Source of the DNA: a candidate division WOR-3 bacterium
GTDB taxonomy: Bacteria; Hydrothermota; Hydrothermia; Hydrothermales; Hydrothermaceae
Direction of reading: 5' to 3'
NCBI GenBank assembly: GCA_039803745.1
Contig: JBDRZD010000054.1
Span: 1 to 10,396, forward strand
Length of the DNA stretch: 10,396 nt
This document shows positions 1-10,396 of the stretch, piece by piece. Position 1 is the first letter of the stretch. Each line of letters opens with the position of its first letter. A program made the translations under genes and the position numbers. Below the pieces are notes generated by a model that was given only the letters and a program-made list of their open reading frames with translations, searched no databases and was not told the origin of the DNA.

Positions 1-1811
1 TCTTCTTCAAGGACTTTTTCATAACAAAATATTGCCTTGTCAAATTTACCTGTAAAATAATAAATTGCTCCTAAATTAAAATAAATACTTTTTCTATATT
101 TGCTATCCCTTTTTAAAAGATTTAGATAGAGAATTTCCGCACATTTAAATTCAAGTGATAAATAGGCATAAAATGCCAAATTTAAAAATTTTCTATCATG
201 TTCTTTTCTTTTATAAAAACCTTCAAACCAGTTTATAAGCCATGACTTTTTCTTTTTATTTAATATTTCCCACACCTCTTTTTCATCTATTACTGTATCA
301 ATTCCCATTTCTTTTATTATTTTCATAAAATTTACTCTTCCAATATGAGGCATAAAATCTCTATGAGCAAATATAACTGACTTATCATCAGCATATATCA
401 TTCTCCATTCAGGCATACTCTTTATATCCCTGTCCCAGAAAAGTGCTTCAGGGTAAGAATAATCAAATATAACAATGTCTGGTTTATATTCTTTTATAAG
501 CTGCGGAAGACCGCCAGGTTTAAAACTTTCCTTATATTTTTTAAAAAACTTTTCTTTCATAACTTCAAGCCTTCCATCTATAAAAACAGGCTCTCTTACA
601 CTCCATATAAGCCAGCTTCCATGATTTAAATCGTTCAATATCCTTCCTTTTAAATTGTTTTTTAAAATAAAATTAGAAGCACCTATTGGTTGCACATTTT
701 CATCAAGACCAATGCCAAAATTTCCTCCGCCTCTATCATAATAAAAGGAATTTGTAAGTATTCTTATAAAAAATAAAAGGAGAATAAAATCAAAAACATA
801 AAAAAGATAATTTAAAAATTTTTTAATTGAATCATAAAAATTATCTATGGAAAGGGCAAGGATTTGGGAAGAGGCGATCAAAAATAATGGGATATTTCTA
901 ATGGCAGTATAAGAAAGATAAAGGAATGAAAAGAGGATTAAAAATTCGTGAATTTTTCTCTTTTTAAATGTTAAAATAAAAAATAGAATTGTTAAAAAAA
1001 TAAAAATATAAAAAAGTATTAAAGGAGTTTTTGGCATTAGAAATAAAGCCTTTTTTGAAAATGGTGAAGTAAATTCAAAAATCACATCTTTAAATACACT
1101 TTTTTCTTGAAGTCTTGTAAAAAGATAAAATGGAAAAAGAACTCCTTTTAGAAAATAGGGATTTAAAAAAGAGGAAAGGATTGAAATAAAAACATATTTA
1201 AAAAATTCCTTATCAAATTTTTTGTAATGATAAAGATAACTTATAAAATAAAAGCCCATAACAGCCCATCCAAGAATGAATATTCCATGAAAATTTGTCC
1301 ATAGAACCTGTATAAAAGGTAATAGATAAAGATAGTTTTTCCTTTTATAAAAATGTTCATCAAGAATAAAAAGAATGGTAATTAAAAAAATGTATGAGAA
1401 AAGTTCTGGTCTTAAAGAAAATCTCAATTCTGCTATTAAAACAACTGCTAATATAACTATAAATGATATAGATTTATGAATTCTCCTTTTATTCATCCTT
1501 AAAAAAATTATTAAAAATAAAAGGGTAACTAAAATTGATGTTAGAAAGGAAAGACCTTTGTATCCTGAAATTTTATAAATTAAAAATATTAGGATCTGGA
1601 ATAACCAGTACATTGCAATATATTCATTATTATTAACAGTATATGTAAAAACATCATATTTATGGAAGGATTTATTTTCAATCATCCATTCTCCACCTCT
1701 TAAGTGAAATCCAAGGTCATAATCCATTATTTTTCTTAAGGATAAAGAGAAAATGAAAATAAAGAGGAATAGAAAAGAAACTTTAAGAAAATTTATTCTG
1801 TATTTTCTCAC
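1..1811 (-). CDS. Multi-pass membrane protein, GT-C / STT3-PglB-like glycosyltransferase architecture with C-terminal TPR repeats (3' end outside window)
   Basis: Manual translation: the frame starting at GTG 1811 is the same frame that reaches the window edge, and I saw no stop in the stretches I read. MRKYRINFLKVSFLFLFIFIFSLSLRKIMDYDLGFHLRGGEW..., RFSLRPELF, LWTNFHGIFILG, LNPYF, VIFEFTSP, AIRNIPLF, GRILNDLNHGSWLIW..PVFIDGR, ending in TPR-like FNLGAIYYFTGKFDKAIFCYEKVLEE. Many hydrophobic segments. Alternative in-frame TTG at 1838. Confidence 0.85.
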   Translation of the reverse strand, partial: MRKYRINFLKVSFLFLFIFIFSLSLRKIMDYDLGFHLRGGEWMIENKSFHKYDVFTYTVNNNEYIAMYWLFQILIFLIYKISGYKGLSFLTSILVTLLFLIIFLRMNKRRIHKSISFIVILAVVLIAELRFSLRPELFSYIFLITILFILDEHFYKRKNYLYLLPFIQVLWTNFHGIFILGWAVMGFYFISYLYHYKKFDKEFFKYVFISILSSFLNPYFLKGVLFPFYLFTRLQEKSVFKDVIFEFTSPFSKKALFLMPKTPLILFYIFIFLTILFFILTFKKRKIHEFLILFSFLYLSYTAIRNIPLFLIASSQILALSIDNFYDSIKKFLNYLFYVFDFILLLFFIRILTNSFYYDRGGGNFGIGLDENVQPIGASNFILKNNLKGRILNDLNHGSWLIWSVREPVFIDGRLEVMKEKFFKKYKESFKPGGLPQLIKEYKPDIVIFDYSYPEALFWDRDIKSMPEWRMIYADDKSVIFAHRDFMPHIGRVNFMKIIKEMGIDTVIDEKEVWEILNKKKKSWLINWFEGFYKRKEHDRKFLNLAFYAYLSLEFKCAEILYLNLLKRDSKYRKSIYFNLGAIYYFTGKFDKAIFCYEKVLEE

Positions 1812-1818
1812 AAATTTA

Positions 1819-1848
1819 ATTATATTTAAAAAATTCAATGATAATCAA
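1819..1848 (-). promoter_or_regulatory. Putative sigma70 promoter for the GT-C-like gene (probably leaderless)
   Basis: Minus strand TTGATT (1848-1843), 18 nt, TATAAT (1824-1819); GTG start follows 7 nt later; no Shine-Dalgarno. The AT-rich background lowers significance. Confidence 0.5.
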
Positions 1849-1855
1849 TTATAAT
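1826..1855 (+). promoter_or_regulatory. Putative sigma70 promoter for the plus-strand cluster
   Basis: TATAAT at 1850-1855, 9 nt before ATG 1865; weak -35 TTAAAA at 1826-1831; no Shine-Dalgarno. Confidence 0.4.
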
Positions 1856-1864
1856 TTAAAACTC

Positions 1865-2758
1865 ATGAGGATAATTGGTAAAATAAACAAAATTGAAAAA
1901 GATAGGGTTGAGTTTATTCCATTAGATATTTTCCCTGAAGAAATTAAATATTTTAAAAAAATAAAAAATAAAAAGATTTATATTGAAAAAGAAGAAAATT
2001 TTGAAGAAGGAAAACTTTTTGTTCTTGACAGTGAAAAAAGCAGGGAAATCCTTTATAAAAATTTCAAAGTAAAAAATAAAAAAAATTTATATTTTTCTTA
2101 TGAAAGAGGTAAAAATTATGTTCTTTTGGAAAACGAGTTTTTAAAAATTCTTATTGACCCTGAAAAAGGAGGGAAAATAGAATCTCTATTGGATAAAAAA
2201 AATAATTTTGAATGGTTTTTTGATGATTTTTCTTTTTCAGAGGGGAAATTATCAAGATGCGGAATTTCACAGGGTTTTAAAGAAAGAAGTCTTTATGAAA
2301 AAAGATTGGATTATAAATGGAATAAAATTGAATTTTTTGGGAAAAGGAAAGAGAAGGATTTTTTATTTGAAAAAAGGATAAAGATCTTAAATAAAAAACT
2401 TTTTTTATCTTTTTCATTAAAATCAAAAAAGGAAAGTGAGTTTTATCCATTTTTTGAAATAAAATTCTTTACAAAAGGAAAACCCTTTGAATATTCTATA
2501 AGTTATATGGAGAATGAAGAAATGAAAGAAATGCCCCTTTTCTCTTACCCATTTTTTGGTGGATGGACACATATCCGTGAATTGGGAATTGTAAAAAAAA
2601 TAATTGTGGAAAATAATAGAAGTAAAATAAAAATAAAACCTGAGATAAGAAAACTCATAAATTTTGATTTTGGATATGGAATTGACTATTTTTATTTTAG
2701 GTTGTTTTACAAAAAATTTAAAAAAATTTTTAATGCAAAAATTATAGTGTCATGCTAA
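1865..2758 (+). CDS. Hypothetical protein with galactose mutarotase-like beta-sandwich region
   Basis: VLLENEFLKILIDPEKGGKIESLLDKKNNFEW matches the opening motif of aldose-epimerase-like / glycoside hydrolase C-terminal supersandwich domains; the remainder looks beta-rich. ATG 1865 preferred over 1838 because 1838 lies upstream of the candidate -10 box. Confidence 0.6.
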   Translation: MRIIGKINKIEKDRVEFIPLDIFPEEIKYFKKIKNKKIYIEKEENFEEGKLFVLDSEKSREILYKNFKVKNKKNLYFSYERGKNYVLLENEFLKILIDPEKGGKIESLLDKKNNFEWFFDDFSFSEGKLSRCGISQGFKERSLYEKRLDYKWNKIEFFGKRKEKDFLFEKRIKILNKKLFLSFSLKSKKESEFYPFFEIKFFTKGKPFEYSISYMENEEMKEMPLFSYPFFGGWTHIRELGIVKKIIVENNRSKIKIKPEIRKLINFDFGYGIDYFYFRLFYKKFKKIFNAKIIVSC

Positions 2759-3945
2759 CATTTGGATTTGAATGGGAAATATTTGTTTTGAATACAAAAC
2801 TTCTTCCCCTTCAAAGGGAAGAAACTCTTAATATTGCCTATAATTTAAGAAAAAAGATAAGGGGAACTCATACAGGATGTGATTTTATGATTTATTTTCC
2901 ATCACCAATACTTGAAATAAGAAGTGGAATAATGAAGAGTTTAAGAGAAAGTGAGGAAATTTTAGAGAAAATTTTTGAAGAGATTAAAAAATTAAGGAAA
3001 AATAATTTGATATTTTTATTTTCAGGAACATATCCATTTTCAGGTGATACTGCTGGTTTTCATGTTCATATTGGAAGTTTTTATTCCTTTAAAGAGTCTT
3101 TTGAATATGAAAGAAGTTTGATAAATTATATTCCTTTACTTGGTGCAATTTCTGCAAATAGTTCTATATATACAAAATATATATATGGAAATTATAAAAG
3201 TTACAGGATTTTGTTTCATGCATGGTGGGCATCAAGACCAAATAGATATGAAATTGAGAAGAAAAGGTTTTTTGAATGGGGAACAGATTTAAATAATAAA
3301 TTAATATACAAGCCGACAATTGAGATAAGGATAGGTGATGCACCAATTTTTAAGGATTTTATAATGGATTATTTATTTCTCTGCCTTGGTTTTTTCCTTT
3401 TAAATGATGAAGAATTTAATGAAAAAAGATATAGGGAATATTTAATAAATAGATTGATAATAGCAAAAAATGGATTGCAGTCAAAAATATTATGGAATGG
3501 AAAAGAAGAAAATATTGATGATGTTTTGTTAAATAAAATTTCAAAAATAGAGGATAAACTTTCAAAAAAATTCAATTATAAATTTAAGATAGTGCCAGAG
3601 ATGATAGAGAAAAGGAGAAATATGGCTGATTTTTCTTATGAAATTTTTAAAAAAGAGAATATGGATATCTTAAATTATATTTTAAGAGTAAACGATGCCT
3701 TTTTTGAAAATGGTTTTTTAAATTATTTAAGAAATTCAAAAAAACTTGAAATTTTAAAATCTCCAACACCTGAAGAAATATTTTTTGAATTTACAAAAGG
3801 TAAAAGTGCCTTGTGGAGATTATCAGAGATTTCAAAATTGCCTCTTCTTGAAATTGAAAAAATAATAGAAAATTTAAAAAAGAAGAGAAAAATAAAAATT
3901 TTTAAAGACAAAATTTATGGAATTTTGATTTCAAGAAATGATTAA
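2752..3945 (+). CDS. Carboxylate-amine ligase, glutamate-cysteine ligase family 2 (GCS2/YbdK-like), atypical
   Basis: Ordered GCS2 motifs: TFGFEWE, ILEIRS, SGTYPF, AGFHVHIG, AISANS, KSYR, PTIEIRIGDAP. 7 nt overlap with the upstream gene. Confidence 0.8.
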   Translation: MLTFGFEWEIFVLNTKLLPLQREETLNIAYNLRKKIRGTHTGCDFMIYFPSPILEIRSGIMKSLRESEEILEKIFEEIKKLRKNNLIFLFSGTYPFSGDTAGFHVHIGSFYSFKESFEYERSLINYIPLLGAISANSSIYTKYIYGNYKSYRILFHAWWASRPNRYEIEKKRFFEWGTDLNNKLIYKPTIEIRIGDAPIFKDFIMDYLFLCLGFFLLNDEEFNEKRYREYLINRLIIAKNGLQSKILWNGKEENIDDVLLNKISKIEDKLSKKFNYKFKIVPEMIEKRRNMADFSYEIFKKENMDILNYILRVNDAFFENGFLNYLRNSKKLEILKSPTPEEIFFEFTKGKSALWRLSEISKLPLLEIEKIIENLKKKRKIKIFKDKIYGILISRND

Positions 3946-5602
3946 ATTAATTTTGTTTTTTTCTTTAATAACTCCTGAAAAATTTTTGAATTTCCTTGAA
4001 AAAGAACTTCAAAAAAATTTTGAGGAATTAAATAAAAAGGATTTAAAACCCTATTATATGCAATACCAGTTGATTTTTGAAGAAAGAAAGGAAATTGAGG
4101 TATCCTTCGGAAACATAATAAATGAATATGAAAATAAAAAGGGATATATTGATTCAAAGATTAGAATTGGTGATTATAATTTTGATAGTTCAATATATCC
4201 TGATGAACTTTACTTTGGAGGGGAAGAGGAGGGTGTAATATCATATATTTTAAGGGATTTAAAAATCCCCTTTTATGAAGATACTTCAATCAAAGAAATT
4301 CTTAAAAAGATCAGTTTGAGAAGTTATCAGATTTCAAAGGTAAGGTATCTTGAAAAAAAGGGTAAAATAATTCAGGAAGTTAGGGAGGATACACTTCCCT
4401 GTTTTACAAAAGAGGCTCCTGAAATTTATATTGATTTTAAAAAAGAAAAAAATATAAATGAAGAAAAAATTAAAAAAATTATAAAAGAAATTTCAGAAAT
4501 TTTTAAAGGGGAAAAAGAGATCATTTCTTCCTCTGTTCTTTATACTTCTATAAAAAACAGAAAGTATTTTGTTGATACAGAAAAAAGAAAAATATTTGAA
4601 AAGAGAAATTATAATTACATTTATATATATGCAGAGACGAAAACAGATGATGGAATGTGGGTATCAGATTTTGAAACAATTTTTTTCTTTGATGAAAAGG
4701 ATTTGCCCTCTTATGATTCCTTAATTTTTTTAACAAAAAAGATTATAGAGAATGTTAAGAATTTAAGATATGCAAAAATTCAGGAAGCCTATAAAGGTCC
4801 TGTTTTAATAAAATCACCTGCATCAGGTGTTTTCTTTCATGAAATTTTAGGGCATAGACTTGAGGGGCACAGGCAAAGGTCTCGTGTTGAAGGAGAAATT
4901 TTTAAAGAAAAAATAGGTGAAAAAATATTAGAGGATTTTATAAATGTTTATGATGCTCCTGATTTAAAATATTATAAAAATTTTCCCTTAAGCGGTTTTT
5001 ATAATTTTGATGAAGAAGGGATAAGAGGTAAAAAAGTAATTTTAATAGAGAAAGGAATCTTAAAAAATCTTTTACTTTCAAGAAGACCTGTCCTTAATTT
5101 TAAAAATTCAAATGGACATGCAAGGGCTTCCCCATTTTATCTTTCTTCCTCATTTAATCCTCCTGTTCCAAGACAGGGAAATTTAATAATTGAAAATTTG
5201 CGTCCTGTAAGTTTTGATTCTTTAAAAAAATTATTAATTTCAGAATGTATAAACCAAAATAAGGATTATGGGATAATAATTGAAAAAATAAGGGAAGGAA
5301 GAACACAGACAACAAAGTTCACACTTGAAACTTTTGAATCAGAACCAGTTGTTGCAAAAAGGATATATTTAGATGGTAAAGAAGAATATATAAGAGGTAT
5401 CAGGTTTGGAGGAACACCTTTAATTTCTTTAAAAAATATAATACTCCTTGGTGATGACCAAAAAGTTTATAATGGATTCTGTGGTGCTGAATCAGGAAGT
5501 ATTCCTGTTGGCATTGTTTCGCCTTCTGTTTTAATAAGAGAAATTGAACTTGCAAAGAAAGAGAAAAGTTTTTTAAAACCACCCTTTTTACCAAGACCAT
5601 GA
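3938..5602 (+). CDS. TldD/PmbA family Zn metalloprotease, catalytic (TldD-like) subunit
   Basis: FFHEILGHRLEG (HExxxH, 4838-4855), FDEEG, LIEKGILKN, SNGHARA, C-terminal GFCGAESG with the Cys ligand (5480-5482), VSPSVL. Short hydrophobic N-terminus MIKLILFFSLI. Confidence 0.92.
   Translation: MIKLILFFSLITPEKFLNFLEKELQKNFEELNKKDLKPYYMQYQLIFEERKEIEVSFGNIINEYENKKGYIDSKIRIGDYNFDSSIYPDELYFGGEEEGVISYILRDLKIPFYEDTSIKEILKKISLRSYQISKVRYLEKKGKIIQEVREDTLPCFTKEAPEIYIDFKKEKNINEEKIKKIIKEISEIFKGEKEIISSSVLYTSIKNRKYFVDTEKRKIFEKRNYNYIYIYAETKTDDGMWVSDFETIFFFDEKDLPSYDSLIFLTKKIIENVKNLRYAKIQEAYKGPVLIKSPASGVFFHEILGHRLEGHRQRSRVEGEIFKEKIGEKILEDFINVYDAPDLKYYKNFPLSGFYNFDEEGIRGKKVILIEKGILKNLLLSRRPVLNFKNSNGHARASPFYLSSSFNPPVPRQGNLIIENLRPVSFDSLKKLLISECINQNKDYGIIIEKIREGRTQTTKFTLETFESEPVVAKRIYLDGKEEYIRGIRFGGTPLISLKNIILLGDDQKVYNGFCGAESGSIPVGIVSPSVLIREIELAKKEKSFLKPPFLPRP
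5094..5124 (+). repeat. 31 bp near-identical direct repeat, copy 1 (inside tldD-like gene)
   Basis: ttaattttaaaaattcaaatggacatgcaag; one mismatch to 6731-6761; encodes NFKNSNGHAR. Confidence 0.85.
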
Positions 5603-7131
5603 AATTTTTAATTTTATTTTTTATAATAAGTGGCATAAGAAATATTTTAAAAAAGGAAATTGAAAAAAATTTTAAATATTTGAATGAAAATTTTGAAATT
5701 AAACCATATTTTATCCTTTATAGAATTTTTGATATAAAAATTTATTATTTAGAATTTTCTGATAAAAATTTAGTTGAAGAAAGAAAAACAAATTTAAGGA
5801 TTCCCTATGTTGAATTAAGGGTTGGGGATTATAAAAATGATGGAGTTAATACAAAAATTTTAACAGATTTTTTAGAGGATGAGGATTTTAAGAATTTCCT
5901 GTACCCCAAATTGCCCCTTGAAGATGATGAACATGGAATAAGGGATGTATTCTGGAAAATTACTGATTTTGCCTATAAAATAAGTGTGAGGAATTTTTAT
6001 GAGAAAGAAAAAAAGGGAACAGTTTTTCTTGAAGAAGATACTTCTTATTCTTTTTCAAAGGAGATTCCAAATAAATATATAGAAAAGAGAAGGGAAAAAA
6101 TAAATTATGAGGAAATAAGAAATAAGTTTTTTGAGTTTAATAAAAAGATTAAAAAGGAAAAATTTATATACAATTTAAAAACTTATTTTTACTCTATTAA
6201 TATGGGAAGAACAATTTTGAACACTGAAGGAACTGAAATTGAGGACAATAGAATTTATTTTCTTTTAAAGGTTGAAGTTTCAGCCTTTGATGAGGAAGGT
6301 AAATATTATAAAAATTCAAGGGAATTTTTTGGTTATAAAATAGATGAAATTTTAAATGAAAATATTTTAAGAGAAATAAAAATTTTTATAGATGGTTTTA
6401 AAGAATATGTTAATGCAAAGGAAATAAAAGAGTATAATGGAGATATAGTTTTAAGAGGGATTTCTTCATCAAAATTTATTTTAAATCTTGTAAAAAACAG
6501 ATTTCTTTTAAATAAAGAAAATTGTGAAATTTTAAAGGATTTTTTTGATAAAATTGGTAATAAGATAACAGGTGATATAAGAATTTATGATAAGCCGGAT
6601 ATAAAATATTTTAATGGATATCCTCTTTCAGGACATTTAATTTATGATGATGAAGGAGTAAAATCAAAAGAGGTTATTCTTATTGAAGATGGAATTTTAA
6701 AGAATTTTCTTTTAAAAAGGGAGCCAGTGTTTAATTTCAAAAATTCAAATGGACATGCAAGAGCAGGAATTTATTCAATCCCTTTCCCTTTTATAACAAA
6801 TTTATTTGTTGATGGTAAAATTTATGAGATTGAAAATGATAGCATACTTATAATAGAGGATATAGAATTTAAATCATCACTTTCTTTTGAAATTAAAAAG
6901 GGATTTTTATCTTACAAAAATGGTATTAAGAAAGAGATTAAGAATTTAATTGTTTCTTTTTCTTCCTTTGATGAAATGCTTGCAAAGATTAAAGGTGTAT
7001 GTGGTTCTTTAAAATCTTATAATTTTTATGAAGATAATCCATATATGCCCTTCTCTATTAATTCCTATGATTTAATTTTAAAGGATGTGTATTCAAAGAG
7101 GTTTTTTAAAAAGAAGATAAGAAGTGATTAA
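5599..7131 (+). CDS. TldD/PmbA family protein, non-catalytic (TldE/PmbA-like) partner
   Basis: Colinear with the upstream paralog (LRVGDY, YDDEG, LIEDGILKNFL, SNGHARA) but the HExxxH region is replaced by SKFILNLVKNR. ATGA overlap with the upstream gene. Hydrophobic N-terminus MKFLILFFIISG. Confidence 0.85.
   Translation: MKFLILFFIISGIRNILKKEIEKNFKYLNENFEIKPYFILYRIFDIKIYYLEFSDKNLVEERKTNLRIPYVELRVGDYKNDGVNTKILTDFLEDEDFKNFLYPKLPLEDDEHGIRDVFWKITDFAYKISVRNFYEKEKKGTVFLEEDTSYSFSKEIPNKYIEKRREKINYEEIRNKFFEFNKKIKKEKFIYNLKTYFYSINMGRTILNTEGTEIEDNRIYFLLKVEVSAFDEEGKYYKNSREFFGYKIDEILNENILREIKIFIDGFKEYVNAKEIKEYNGDIVLRGISSSKFILNLVKNRFLLNKENCEILKDFFDKIGNKITGDIRIYDKPDIKYFNGYPLSGHLIYDDEGVKSKEVILIEDGILKNFLLKREPVFNFKNSNGHARAGIYSIPFPFITNLFVDGKIYEIENDSILIIEDIEFKSSLSFEIKKGFLSYKNGIKKEIKNLIVSFSSFDEMLAKIKGVCGSLKSYNFYEDNPYMPFSINSYDLILKDVYSKRFFKKKIRSD
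6731..6761 (+). repeat. 31 bp near-identical direct repeat, copy 2 (inside tldE-like gene)
   Basis: ttaatttcaaaaattcaaatggacatgcaag; one mismatch to 5094-5124. Confidence 0.85.
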
Positions 7132-7726
7132 CCATAAAGAGATAAGAAATGACATTGAAATTTTTCTTGATTTTTTAGAAAAAAATTTGCCTGAAAAGAA
7201 AATTTATGTTGAAAAGTTTAAAAAATATCATGAAAAGATAATAAAAGAAAATGAAAAGATGAGCCTTGTTTCAAAAAAAGATATTTATTCAGTTGCAAGG
7301 AAACATTTTTTAGATTCAGTTTTGATTTCAAATTTCATAGAAGAAAAGGAAATAAGTGATATAGGTTCTGGTGCAGGTTTCCCTGGTATTATAATTTCTA
7401 TATTAAATCCTGATAAAAGAGTTTATCTTATAGAAAGAAATCTAAAAAAGAGTATTTTTTTAAAAGAGGTGAAAATTGTTTTGTCTCTTGAAAATGTTAA
7501 AGTGATAAGGGAAGATATTTTAAATATGCAAGAAATTCCAGGGGATGCCTTTGTTTCAAGGGCAGCAAATTATAAAAAGATATTGAAAATTTTAAAGGAT
7601 AAAAATATTAAAGATAAAAATTTTTATGCTGTTTTACCCTTTAAAGAAAATATAAAGGAAAAATTTTATATAATAAAAAACCCTTTAACAAAAGAAAACT
7701 TTAAGTTGTTAAAAATTAAGATTTAA
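7124..7726 (+). CDS. rsmG: 16S rRNA (guanine(527)-N7)-methyltransferase RsmG (GidB)
   Basis: NEKMSLVS, KHFLDS, DIGSGAGFPG (SAM-binding), LIERNLKKSIFL, VSRA. GTG start overlapping the upstream stop by 8 nt. Confidence 0.92.
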   Translation: MINHKEIRNDIEIFLDFLEKNLPEKKIYVEKFKKYHEKIIKENEKMSLVSKKDIYSVARKHFLDSVLISNFIEEKEISDIGSGAGFPGIIISILNPDKRVYLIERNLKKSIFLKEVKIVLSLENVKVIREDILNMQEIPGDAFVSRAANYKKILKILKDKNIKDKNFYAVLPFKENIKEKFYIIKNPLTKENFKLLKIKI

Positions 7727-8064
7727 TATCCTAAGAGTCCTATAAGTGCTCCTGTCATTAAAACAATAAAAAGTGTGATAAGCGAAAAAGCAATACCTAC
7801 TATTAAAGTAATTCCTGCTATTATAAAGTAAAGTCTTATTTTTGAAATTGCTTCAAGGAATTTATTTTCATCCTTTGATAAAAAAGCAGAGGATGCAAGA
7901 TTTCCTGCTTGATAAAGAACAACTCCCATCCATATTGGAAGCCATGCAATAATTATTCCTGCAATGGATAATGCAGTTAGAGCACCTGCTATGATTGATA
8001 GAATACCTATAAATTTCATCCATCCACTTGCCTTATTCAGTTCCTCAAATATTTTTTCATTCAT
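7723..8064 (-). CDS. Small membrane protein, DUF5362-like
   Basis: GWMKFIGILSII..IIIAWLPIWMGVVLYQA..YFIIAG pattern, about three hydrophobic segments; AGGAGG at 8074-8069. Confidence 0.75.
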   Translation of the reverse strand: MNEKIFEELNKASGWMKFIGILSIIAGALTALSIAGIIIAWLPIWMGVVLYQAGNLASSAFLSKDENKFLEAISKIRLYFIIAGITLIVGIAFSLITLFIVLMTGALIGLLGY

Positions 8065-8072
8065 AAAACCTC

Positions 8073-8951
8073 CTAAATTTCAAAATTTATATTTTTATCA
8101 CCCTTTTTAATGAATGCAACAGGCATTGTTTCTGTATTTTTATAAAAGCCGAATTCACAGCTTATTGTTATACCAATAACTCCTGCAAGCCCTTTTGTAT
8201 TTTTTTCAAGTTCTTCTATACCAATTCTACATGCTTCACTTATATCCTTTCCTTCAATTACCTTATCACATATAAATTTTGCAAGAACAACCCTCATTAT
8301 TGACTCACCAAACCCTGTTGCAGAAACTGCACAAAGACTATTAGCATAGGTTCCGCACCCAATACATGGAGTATCACCAATTCTTCCTTTCATTTTTAAA
8401 AATATTCCACCTGTTGAAGTTCCTGCAACGATTATTCCATTTCTATCAACTGCGCAGGCACCAACAGTATCACCAGAAAATACATGTTGCAAGAAATCTT
8501 TTCCTTCATTTATTGCCTTTTCATACATTGAAAGTTTTTCAGAAGTTAAAAGATTTTCTCTTTTAAAACCTTCTGAAATTGCAAATTCCTCTGCACCTTC
8601 ACCACTTAAAAGAAGATGGGGTGTTTTTTCCATTACTTTCCTTGCAATTAATATCGGATTTTTAAATCCTTTAATTCCTGCAACACCACCAAATCTTAAA
8701 TCATTTCCAACCATTATTGCAGCATCAAGTTCAATCTCACAATAATGATTTGGAGATGCTCCGTATCCTGCATTGAAATAGGGATTATTTTCCATTTCAC
8801 AAACAGCAGCACATACAGCATCAATTGCAGAACCATTTTTTTCTAAAATCTTATATCCTTCCTCACACGCCTTTATCACCCCTTCTTTTGCTCTTTCTCT
8901 ATCTCTATGCTTTCCTGCTCCACCATGAACAATTATACCAAAATTACCCAT
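8073..8951 (-). CDS. iaaA: Isoaspartyl peptidase / L-asparaginase (Ntn-hydrolase, asparaginase 2 family)
   Basis: IIVHGGAG, FNAGYG, ELDAAIM, KNPILIAR, GDTVGA (Thr nucleophile), TSTGG, GRIGDTP, SATGFGE. Confidence 0.93.
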   Translation of the reverse strand: MGNFGIIVHGGAGKHRDRERAKEGVIKACEEGYKILEKNGSAIDAVCAAVCEMENNPYFNAGYGASPNHYCEIELDAAIMVGNDLRFGGVAGIKGFKNPILIARKVMEKTPHLLLSGEGAEEFAISEGFKRENLLTSEKLSMYEKAINEGKDFLQHVFSGDTVGACAVDRNGIIVAGTSTGGIFLKMKGRIGDTPCIGCGTYANSLCAVSATGFGESIMRVVLAKFICDKVIEGKDISEACRIGIEELEKNTKGLAGVIGITISCEFGFYKNTETMPVAFIKKGDKNINFEI

Positions 8952-8961
8952 ATTTAATTCC

Positions 8962-9579
8962 TTATTTTTCTACATTTTTTACTTTTTCCTTCATTTTTAT
9001 TTTTTGTGTGTCCTCCATTATTTCTATTTTTTCAATTATATCACCTTTCCTCAATTTTTTAACAATATCCATTCCCTTTATAACTTTACCAAAGACCGTA
9101 TAATTTCCATCAAGATGGGGAGTTTCTTTTAAAGTAATGTAAAACTGGCATGAACCAGAATTCGGATCTTGAGCCCTTGCAATGCCAAGTGCTCCCTCTA
9201 CATGTTTTGCCTTTTCATTAATCTCTAATGGAATATTGTATCCTGCATTTCCATAACCTGTTCCATAAGGGTCTCCTCCCTGAATAACAAAATCAGGAAC
9301 ATACCTGTGGAAGATAAGTCCATCATAAAATCCGAGTTTTGAAAGTTTAACAAAATTTTTAACAGTTTTCGGAGCATACTGGGGATAGAGTTCACAAAGA
9401 AATTCACCCTTATTTGTCTTTATTAAAATTTTTAATGGCTCTTTTATTTCTATATCCACATCCTTATATTTTTTAGCAATCTCAATTCTTTCTTCCGGTT
9501 TTGAATTTTTATTTAGAATCCTTTCTATTTTTAATTCCTGCTCCTGTGCAAAGAGTAAAAAAAATAAGCAAAGAAACAT
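8962..9579 (-). CDS. Cyclophilin-type peptidyl-prolyl cis-trans isomerase, probably exported
   Basis: APKTVKNF, FYDGLIFHR, FVIQGGDP, SGSCQFYI, HLDGNYTVFGKV; hydrophobic N-terminus MFLCLFFLLFA; AGGAGG at 9590-9585. Confidence 0.95.
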   Translation of the reverse strand: MFLCLFFLLFAQEQELKIERILNKNSKPEERIEIAKKYKDVDIEIKEPLKILIKTNKGEFLCELYPQYAPKTVKNFVKLSKLGFYDGLIFHRYVPDFVIQGGDPYGTGYGNAGYNIPLEINEKAKHVEGALGIARAQDPNSGSCQFYITLKETPHLDGNYTVFGKVIKGMDIVKKLRKGDIIEKIEIMEDTQKIKMKEKVKNVEK

Positions 9580-9608
9580 TTGAACCTCCTTTAATTTAAA
9601 GAAATATA

Positions 9609-9638
9609 ATTATATCAAAAAGAGAAAAGGATTATCAA
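9609..9638 (-). promoter_or_regulatory. Putative sigma70 promoter upstream of the PPIase-iaaA-DUF5362 genes
   Basis: Minus strand TTGATA (9638-9633), 18 nt, TATAAT (9614-9609), with extended -10 TGn (TGATATAAT), in the 69 bp intergenic gap and upstream of an AGGAGG RBS. Confidence 0.65.
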
Positions 9639-9648
9639 AGAGAAGGAA

Positions 9649-10023
9649 TTATTTTAAAGTATCCCTTTTAAAACCTTTATTTATAATTTTTATTTTTCCT
9701 GAATAACCAATATTATCCCACTCATCAATTGCCTTTGCCCTTAAAAAATGAACAGAATCTGAAAGAAGGAATTTAAAAATATATGGCGGAATTGAATCTT
9801 TTCCAATGGATTTATCATCTGAAAAAACTTCAACATAAATTATCTTTGATTTATCTTTAACCTCTATTTTTATTTCAATTTCACCTTCAAGAGTATCTCT
9901 ATCAGAGGGGTTTAAAATTTCAACATCAGGAGGCTGTGTATCAGGTTTTCCTGGTGGAGGCATTTTTTTTGCACAAAAGTTTAATATTATCATTAAAAAA
10001 ATTATTTTTTTAATATCATTCAC
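9649..10023 (-). CDS. Putative lipoprotein with a single bacterial Ig-like domain
   Basis: KKIIFLMIILNF-C signal with Cys, Pro-rich linker PPPGKPDTQPP, then Ig-like pattern VEILNP..IKIEVKD..VEVF..PPY..LRAKAIDEWDN. Start codon uncertain (see findings). Confidence 0.75.
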   Translation of the reverse strand: MNDIKKIIFLMIILNFCAKKMPPPGKPDTQPPDVEILNPSDRDTLEGEIEIKIEVKDKSKIIYVEVFSDDKSIGKDSIPPYIFKFLLSDSVHFLRAKAIDEWDNIGYSGKIKIINKGFKRDTLK

Positions 10024-10396
10024 CTCCTCTAAAAATTATTTTTATTAATTGCATTATAAAAATTCCAAGAATAAAAAAAATGAAAGAGTTTAAAGACTTT
10101 TTAAAATCAACCTCTTTATGAAGTTCAGGGATCAAATCAGATGCTGCAATATAAAAAAAATTACCTGCTGCAAATGGCATTATGTAATGAATATATTCTG
10201 TCCCTTTAAATAAAAAATAGCCAAAAAGACCGCCTATAAAAGCAGTAAGAGCACTTATAAAATTATAAAAAAGTGCCTTTACTCTGTCCATTCCACCAAA
10301 AATAAGTATTGAATAATCACCTATTTCTTGAGGAATCTCGTGAGCCATAACCACTAATGTTGTTATAATACCGAAAGGAATATTTATTAAAAAACT
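10016..10396 (-). CDS. ZIP family metal (Zn/Fe/Mn) transporter, C-terminal part (5' end outside window)
   Basis: Frame is open to the window edge (SFLINIPFGIITTLVVMA), then HEIPQEIGD, NFISA, AAGNFFYIAASDLIPELH, which are ZIP signature segments. Confidence 0.92.
   Translation of the reverse strand, partial: SFLINIPFGIITTLVVMAHEIPQEIGDYSILIFGGMDRVKALFYNFISALTAFIGGLFGYFLFKGTEYIHYIMPFAAGNFFYIAASDLIPELHKEVDFKKSLNSFIFFILGIFIMQLIKIIFRGGE

Follow-up and report, generated by a model that had tools for sequence, protein, structure and literature searches.

What kind of enzyme is encoded at the edge of a 10,396-nucleotide stretch of DNA from a candidate division WOR-3 bacterium (assembly GCA_039803745.1, contig JBDRZD010000054.1, positions 1 to 10,396; hereafter the window, meaning the whole stretch), and what would it modify? 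An initial annotation, made from the nucleotide sequence, had read the minus-strand gene there as an oligosaccharyltransferase (OST)-like enzyme of the GT-C glycosyltransferase class in which the WWDYG motif is replaced by DLNHG. Our analysis agrees on the fold and differs on the motif and on how closely the protein should be tied to the OSTs. With a probability of roughly 0.6, we read it as a periplasm-facing GT-C enzyme that uses a polyprenyl-phosphate-linked sugar donor, and whose C-terminal tail of tetratricopeptide repeats (TPR) recruits a non-sequon acceptor.

The gene is a 612-codon open reading frame (ORF) on the minus strand at window positions 3..1838, and it runs off the window at its 3' end. 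Two starts are possible, TTG at 1838 or GTG at 1811 (27 nt downstream, residue 10), and the database copy of the protein, 603 aa in length, begins at the GTG. As homologues measure approximately 626-660 aa, some 15-25 C-terminal residues are probably cut off. With the window at about 25% G+C, chance alone would not be expected to leave a frame of 612 codons open, and 214 database proteins match the translation at E≤1e-3 in a homologue search.

An AlphaFold2 model built from a 59-sequence alignment (A1) attained a mean predicted local distance difference test score (pLDDT) of 94.4 and a predicted template modelling score (pTM) of 0.92. When the model was compared with the PDB using Foldseek, 25 matches were returned at E≤1e-3, every one a GT-C enzyme. 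Ranks 1-22 were occupied by chains of yeast and human STT3, A. fulgidus AglB, C. lari PglB and C. elegans DPY19 (CeDPY19), headed by 8age_A (E 3.4e-7, TMq 0.56, 672 columns) and with CeDPY19 chain 7zli_A at rank 5 (E 3.3e-6). ArnT (E 2.6e-4) and AftD (E 9.3e-4) made up the remainder; ALG12, AftA and ALG9 were listed beyond E 1e-3, and PMT structures matched weakly (E ~0.07 over 274 columns). The GT-C fold matches span 550-790 alignment columns. Modelled alone, the periplasmic domain (pLDDT 88) found the C-terminal domain of AfAglB-S2, CeDPY19 and yeast and human STT3 as its ten best PDB matches, the first being 3vu0, the minimal C-terminal globular domain of AfAglB-S2 (E 1.2e-3, TMt 0.50), with CeDPY19 at ranks 4, 6 and 9. 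An Atlas look-alike search, taken as a lead only, returned unnamed clusters as nearest and Dpy19, STT3 and PMT_2 as the nearest named ones, each at 0.92. On this model, the protein is of GT-C fold and belongs to the STT3/DPY19 architectural class rather than to the OSTs specifically. The GT-C fold anticipated by the initial annotation is thereby borne out, with STT3, AglB, PglB and DPY19 as the nearest PDB entries. Its likening of the protein to an OST stands at the level of the class and fails as a specific assignment, DPY19 matching about as well as STT3.

Sequence-family searches gave a different view. A Pfam scan of the protein matched TPR alone, with PF02516, PF10034, PMT_2 and other GT-C-type models unmatched, and an NCBIfam scan yielded zero matches. 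When 59 homologues were scanned singly against Pfam, no GT-C family appeared among the 25 of 48 families listed, and the non-TPR entries were weak, each occurring in 1-3 members; 31 more distant homologues had TPR-type matches or none. Against PDB sequences, both the whole protein and the full alignment matched TPR proteins exclusively, and TPR-free alignments were therefore made from the fetched loci: A2 (residues 1-545, 58 sequences) and A3 (residues 362-548, 60 sequences). Their profiles matched PDB sequences at chance level (e.g. an acetylcholine receptor, E 0.12), and hhalign put the probability of a match between A2 and E. coli K-12 ArnT at 0.7%.

The domains of the protein and its conserved elements are located as follows.

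756..1838, minus strand: membrane domain, residues 1-361, with 13 hydrophobic helices in the AlphaFold2 model
1704..1724, minus strand: DYDLGFH, residues 39-45, in the first external loop, after model helix 17-32
1653..1655, minus strand: D62, likewise acidic and near-invariant, also in the first external loop, from the alignments
1404..1424, minus strand: RFSLRPE, residues 139-145, in a periplasmic turn between helices 122-139 and 144-165
1293..1301, minus strand: W180-T-N182, in a periplasmic turn between helices 170-183 and 185-205
1131..1163, minus strand: N226-P227-Y228...G232...P236, a proline-containing element at the start of a long external region, from the alignments
1071..1085, minus strand: VIFEF, residues 252-256, in loop 244-269; its x-I-x-E resembles the TIXE of OSTs
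894..905, minus strand: AIRN, residues 312-315, at the periplasmic start of helix 313-332
570..635, minus strand: NDLNHGSWLIWSVREPVFIDGR, residues 402-423, from the translation
561..635, minus strand: N402-D-L-N-H-G407-S-W-L-I-W412...I-D421-G-R423-L-E425-V426, in the presumed place of the OST WWDYG...DGGK
195..755, minus strand: periplasmic alpha/beta domain, residues 362-548, from the alignment, the domain model and Foldseek
3..194, minus strand: TPR repeats at the C-terminus (residues 549-612), incomplete at the window edge, from Pfam and the model

Clusters rich in Lys and Arg occur at residues 1-16, 118-121, 166-169, 206-209 and 290-295. Taken as cytoplasmic loops, they would leave the conserved polar residues, the periplasmic domain (or dome) and the TPR facing the periplasm, and such a positive-inside reading would give 11 crossings together with membrane-associated helices 78-95 and 229-243. 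Pfam matched TPR_1, TPR_2 and TPR_8 at residues 585-611, the model has TPR helices over 549-611, and 55 of the 59 homologues match TPR_2.

Conservation was assessed in a close set of 352 homologues (every retrieved protein 450 aa or longer), aligned to the A2 profile, and in a distant set of 36 sequences of approximately 25-30% identity, drawn from a homologue search with a distant representative (57 hits). The order of the motifs is kept across the 352 homologues. Within the first external loop, D41 (327/329 close, 35/36 distant) is a candidate catalytic or metal-binding aspartate, accompanied by H45 (323/330 and 33/36), D62 (330/340 and 33/36) and the less constant D39 (247/329 close). W78 is present in all 36 distant sequences. 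R143 and P144 are likewise retained in both sets (338/347 and 344/347 close, 35/36 and 36/36 distant), and the position following them is occupied by Glu in 318 of 347 close homologues, with His in 25, and by Glu, Gln or His in 19, 9 and 5 members of the distant set. W180 (349/349) and N182 (344/350) are found in every distant sequence, while N226, P227 and P236 are near-invariant in the close set. In the VIFE segment, E255 is conserved in 350/352 close and 34/34 aligned distant sequences and I253 in 324/351 of the close set, where the first position is variable (H124/A52/T37/V25). R314, a candidate phosphate-binding arginine, is present in 323 of 352 close homologues (Lys in 28) and in 31 distant ones, with one further Lys, and is followed by N315 (351/352 close). 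D484 is shared by 341/347 of the close set.

All motifs quoted in the initial annotation were recomputed at the positions it gave, DYDLGFH falling right after the first transmembrane helix as described; a small correction places VIFEF at 1085-1071 rather than "about 1080-1065". WWDYG is indeed absent, and in its presumed place the family has the consensus N-x-hydrophobic-x-x-G-[GS]-[WY], with D-G-R-L-E-V following 14 residues past the Gly. To call DLNHG the replacement motif, however, was to over-read a single sequence. N402 and G407 are the conserved residues there (each 351/352 close), and both fade in the distant set, where Asn is retained in 19 and Gly in 17 (Ala in 12) of the 32 rows with a residue. 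D403 (S133/D126/H38), N405 (N149/G110) and H406 (F127/T42/Y38) vary within the close set, so that "DLNHG" is specific to the close kin of the window protein. Judging by the alignments, D-G-R is the more deeply conserved half of the N402-V426 region: D421, G422, R423 and E425 occur in 347, 326, 346 and 342 of 351 close homologues, D421 in 31/31 and R423 in 30/31 aligned distant ones. By direct reading, G407 and D421 of the window protein are 14 residues apart, the same distance as between Gly and Asp in PglB and yeast STT3.

How far the protein resembles known enzymes can be judged feature by feature. Stt3, AglB and PglB are described in PMC8342417 as having in common 13 transmembrane helices, DXD motifs in external loops (EL) 1 and 2, TIXE or SVSE in EL5, and a C-terminal domain with WWDYG, DK/MI and either DGGK or the double sequon DNXTZNX[T/S]. 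Like these enzymes (GT66, PF02516), which provide its best whole-model matches, the window protein has a membrane domain followed by a periplasmic domain. Some of its elements resemble theirs: D-x-D past helix 1, an x-I-x-E within one of the long external loops, a conserved Arg where a helix begins on the periplasmic side, and the sequence G...14...D-G early in the periplasmic domain. It departs from them in having no PF02516 match and no WWDYG, in R143-P144-(E/H/Q)145 at the presumed place of the second DXD, in the added C-terminal TPR tail, in a topology read as 11 crossings instead of 13, and in neighbouring genes which, in informative loci, suggest a monosaccharide-monophosphate donor; D421-G422-R423 resembles DGGK in D-G plus a basic residue alone. 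The view that the OST scaffold is kept finds partial backing in the D-x-D, x-I-x-E and D-G-basic elements and does not hold for WWDYG or the second DXD.

DPY19, a tryptophan C-mannosyltransferase (GT98), is comparably close in both whole-model and dome matches. According to PMC10154233, it combines an STT3-like variable membrane module with a C-terminal luminal dome, uses a polyprenyl-monophosphate mannose donor and ties EL5 to the dome by a conserved disulfide. The dome core is reported there as common to DPY19, OSTs, Emb and AftD enzymes, and a dome alone thus does not make the protein an OST. Unlike DPY19, neither the window protein nor the homologues scanned match PF10034, the residue past helix 1 is Asp where DPY19 has its catalytic Glu71 (a putative equivalence), and the family is bacterial and the window protein has a TPR tail, of which DPY19 has none. 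Residues 1-548 of the translation contain zero Cys, which makes a DPY19-type disulfide between EL5 and dome impossible.

The tail recalls a further group. TMEM260 and TMTC are presented in PMC10214176 as TPR-bearing GT-C protein glycosyltransferases, and the pilin-modifying TfpW is described as having 646 aa, 11 predicted helices and a TPR domain in the periplasm (bioRxiv 10.1101/2020.04.19.049825). The window protein has the same layout as TMTC1-4 (GT105), TMEM260 and Pseudomonas TfpW, namely a GT-C membrane domain followed by extracytoplasmic TPR repeats, and by the published description its size and helix number are close to those of TfpW. It differs from all three in matching neither PMT_2 nor another GT-C-type Pfam model and in its weak match to PMT structures; TfpW was, in that description, modelled on ArnT, whereas the window protein is closer to STT3/DPY19 by fold. 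No pilin-like gene was recognised among the window genes, and none adjoins the target gene.

Gene neighbourhoods offer some indication of the donor. ORFs were called in 79 loci and clustered, representatives were scanned, and 150 directly adjacent gene slots were examined. No neighbour is conserved throughout the 79 loci, and the commonest neighbour families are clade-specific: DUF7948/SBBP beta-propeller proteins in 15 loci and GT2 in 14. In 13 loci the GT2 neighbour (about 228 aa) is the next gene downstream on the same strand, and in 2 it is found upstream, making 15 genes in 14 loci. NCBIfam matches it best, in every case far below cut-off, to polyprenyl-phosphate sugar synthases, namely AglJ, PgfS, ArnC, PpgS and a dolichyl-phosphate (Dol-P) hexose transferase. 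A flippase-like PF03706 gene is upstream in 4 Bacteroidota loci. A quick maximum-likelihood tree of 72 rows groups 13 of the 14 GT2-linked genes in a single clade centred on Ignavibacteriota (SH-aLRT 97), where GT2 accompanies 13/13 members, and puts the 14th in a Bacteroidota clade with flippase-like genes. Since the other flanking genes vary between sub-clades of the 13-member clade, the GT2 pairing gains some weight. Such pairs have precedent in PgfS/PgfM1, described in PMC12041528 as a GT2 and GT-C pair for protein O-glycosylation. GT2 at 14/79 loci and a flippase-like gene at 4 likewise recall the three-component systems (GtrA/GtrB/Gtr-type, ArnC/ArnEF/ArnT, PgfS/PgfM1), although here the link is confined to two clades, the GT-C partner carries a dome and TPR, ArnT (GT83) is a weaker fold match than STT3, and ArnT is not matched by profile (the hhalign value above).

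Taken together, we propose a periplasmic active site formed by D41/H45/D62, R143, W180/N182, E255, R314/N315 and, from the dome, D421/R423. The catalytic or metal-binding centre would be D41, with H45 and D62 assisting, and R143 and R314 would bind phosphate; E255 would sit on a mobile external loop, with the dome closing the site through D421 and R423. The donor sugar would be carried on polyprenyl phosphate and, in the informative loci, may be a single sugar on undecaprenyl monophosphate supplied by the adjacent GT2. The acceptor would be a site other than N-x-S/T, most plausibly on a periplasmic or surface protein as with TMTC, TMEM260 and TfpW, and recruited by the TPR tail.

Several observations weigh against this proposal. 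Firstly, no GT-C family is tied to the protein by sequence, whether by Pfam, NCBIfam, PDB profiles or hhalign against ArnT. Secondly, the structural evidence has its own limits: the TM-scores of the fold matches are moderate (0.45-0.56), the positive-inside crossing count disagrees with the 13 of STT3 and DPY19, and the lone periplasmic domain had no PDB match at E≤1e-3 by Foldseek, which leaves the resemblance of the dome suggestive only. Thirdly, GT2 and the flippase-like gene are both absent from the clade of 7 that holds the window protein, the link amounts to two origins in the quick tree, shared ancestry may explain part of it, and the window stops short of the gene downstream of the target. 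Lastly, nothing in the analysis singles out a particular sugar or acceptor, and TPR domains bind glycans or partner proteins as well.

The main alternative is a GT-C enzyme that acts, once export is complete, on an envelope polymer or lipid other than protein (lipopolysaccharide (LPS)/O-antigen, exopolysaccharide, peptidoglycan or glycolipid), akin to Gtr-type systems, ArnT, YfhO or Emb/Aft, with the TPR binding the glycan or docking a partner. We regard it as unlikely, if well short of negligible. The fold matches include ArnT and AftD, and the dome fold is reported for Emb and AftD (PMC10154233), but ranks 1-22 all belong to the protein-modifying enzymes STT3, AglB, PglB and DPY19. The combination of GT2, flippase-like protein and GT-C corresponds to the three-component glycan-modification pattern described in PMC11127046, and envelope genes for LptD, BamD/YfiO-like, GH8 and YfhO-like proteins adjoin single loci; a polysaccharide gene cluster was nevertheless not seen, the 150 directly adjacent slots containing no Wzx, Wzy, initiating phosphoglycosyl transferase or multi-GT cluster. 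TPR tails, for their part, characterise TMTC, TMEM260 and TfpW, which are protein-directed, yet 50 of the 57 listed matches from the distant-representative search are without a precomputed TPR-type Pfam domain.

A true N-glycosylating OST, moving a lipid-pyrophosphate oligosaccharide to Asn and reading its acceptor without WWD, appears improbable. STT3, AglB and PglB do lead the fold matches, and the first DXD, TIXE and DGGK given in PMC8342417 have look-alikes here in D-x-D, x-I-x-E and D-G-R; WWDYG is missing, however, the positions in its presumed place vary, R-P-E/H/Q appears to stand for the second DXD and PF02516 is unmatched. Nor were oligosaccharide-assembly genes found in the adjacent slots examined, where the sole glycan-related neighbour resembles a monophosphate single-sugar synthase. 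That the protein is no glycosyltransferase at all, being a membrane scaffold or another enzyme (e.g. polymerase/ligase-like) with a GT-C-like helix bundle, would fit the want of an assigned sequence family and TM-scores of about 0.5 and is equally improbable, given near-invariant acidic, basic and aromatic residues at the positions of GT-C catalytic and phosphate-binding loops in a predicted fold matched over 550-790 columns.

Returning to the protein-directed reading, a bolder and distinctly tentative extension is that the window protein is the first example of a branch, confined to bacteria, that would be the third of the STT3/DPY19 class: a TPR-guided protein glycosyltransferase that transfers a single sugar from undecaprenyl phosphate to periplasmic or surface proteins, at sites unrelated to the sequon. 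If so, it would, with its tens of thousands of sequence clusters, be among the largest unrecognised protein-glycosylation systems, operating in the uncultured Fibrobacteres-Chlorobi-Bacteroidetes (FCB) group and neighbouring phyla. GT-C enzymes perform protein N-, O- and C-glycosylation as well as extracytoplasmic envelope decoration, and new families (TMTC, TMEM260, PgfM1, GT136) have repeatedly exposed new glycosylation pathways. Here, a large family without a Pfam or NCBIfam model has the protein-modifying STT3 and DPY19 as its closest structural kin. Were the acceptor a protein, a new bacterial protein-glycosylation route and a new scaffold for glycoengineering would follow; were it a glycan, one more widespread envelope-modification enzyme. 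With either acceptor, experimentalists have a concrete list of residues for mutagenesis.

The initial annotation had also supposed a widespread family hidden under "hypothetical" names, and this proved apt. A profile search with A2 retrieved 31,488 representatives of 50%-identity clusters at E≤1e-3 (22,730 at ≤1e-10 and 8,924 at ≤1e-30), and at least 278 homologues, a lower bound set by two strict peptide patterns, were confirmed in a set with one genome per species. Among the matches listed, homologues are called "tetratricopeptide repeat protein" or "hypothetical protein" where their source names them at all. We found no published description of the family, but a nameless family escapes searching by text, making this weak evidence that it is unpublished. 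The nearest homologue, at 64% identity, is from Candidatus Hydrothermus pacificus. Judging by record titles, members beyond WOR-3-like bacteria occur in Ignavibacteriota, Bacteroidales, Prolixibacteraceae (including an assembly of Draconibacterium orientale), candidate divisions FCPU426 and CSSED10-310, and Holophagales, and distant ones in Verrucomicrobiae, Promineifilaceae (Chloroflexota) and Krumholzibacteria. A precomputed TPR-type Pfam domain is present in 7 of the 57 matches listed for the distant representative, and the more distant matches are mostly 470-540 aa long; the scarcity of TPR domains and these shorter lengths indicate that the core of membrane domain plus dome occurs without the tail.

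We know of no enzyme yet identified as the general O-oligosaccharyltransferase of Bacteroidota. The family was considered for this role and dropped: Bacteroides, Porphyromonas, Tannerella and Flavobacterium were not named among the best 120 matches listed in each of two homologue searches, which were all unnamed proteins or derived from metagenome-assembled genomes (MAGs). The test is a weak one, as it covers the best 120 matches of each search.

Paralogues accumulate in some genomes. A single FCPU426 MAG holds at least 8 members of the family (L019, L021, L032, L033, L034, L037, L038 and L069), of which L033 and L034 are identical, over the aligned part of the protein, to L035 of a second FCPU426 MAG, as L032 is to L031 of that second MAG. 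Loci L031-L035 have three small genes downstream in common, including an addiction-module antidote-like one (PF21716), and upstream of the family gene in L031, L033, L034 and L035 lie lectin/NHL beta-propeller genes, of which one has a C-terminal domain of type IX secretion system (T9SS) type; these five loci look like a repeated segment. Two tandem paralogues of 640 and 644 aa occupy positions 7878-11786 of L028. Very long ORFs (1166-1473 aa) in L012, L061 and L062 group with the family by BLAST, lying upstream of the match in L012 and L062.

Other neighbours recur locally. Prolixibacteraceae-type loci (L040-L044, L047, L051, L053 and L072) always have downstream of the gene, on the same strand, a class-II glutamine amidotransferase protein of about 633 aa whose best NCBIfam match, below cut-off, is purF-like; a rhodanese-domain protein is usually upstream, together with a class-V aminotransferase (PF00266) fused to an AIR-synthase-related domain (PF00586/PF02769). 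Six loci (L002, L003, L013, L021, L037 and L069) contain, 1-5 genes away, other proteins of 680-750 aa with C-terminal TPR. The N-terminal half of these neighbours, about 500 aa, is without a Pfam match, and they may represent further enzymes built of a membrane domain plus TPR.

Within the window, G+C ranges from 0.22 to 0.33, and neither tRNA genes nor Rfam families were found over positions 1-10396. The target gene is divergent from an apparent five-gene operon on the plus strand at 1838-7726, in which the ORFs overlap from start to stop by 4-8 nt. It encodes proteins of 306 and 397 aa, two TldD/PmbA-like proteins (554 and 510 aa) and RsmG. The first of these has a weak DUF5107 match alone (E 0.003) and the second a weak match to the GCS2 carboxylate-amine ligases (E 0.005). 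Both TldD/PmbA-like proteins start with a hydrophobic, signal-like segment, which is unusual for this normally cytoplasmic family. The GC skew flips sign near 7700, the same place at which the coding strand switches, and 7723-10396 is taken up by a minus-strand row of small envelope or housekeeping genes: a DUF5362 membrane protein, an Asparaginase_2-type enzyme, a cyclophilin with a hydrophobic N-terminus, a Big_7 Ig-domain protein and, cut by the window end, a ZIP zinc transporter.

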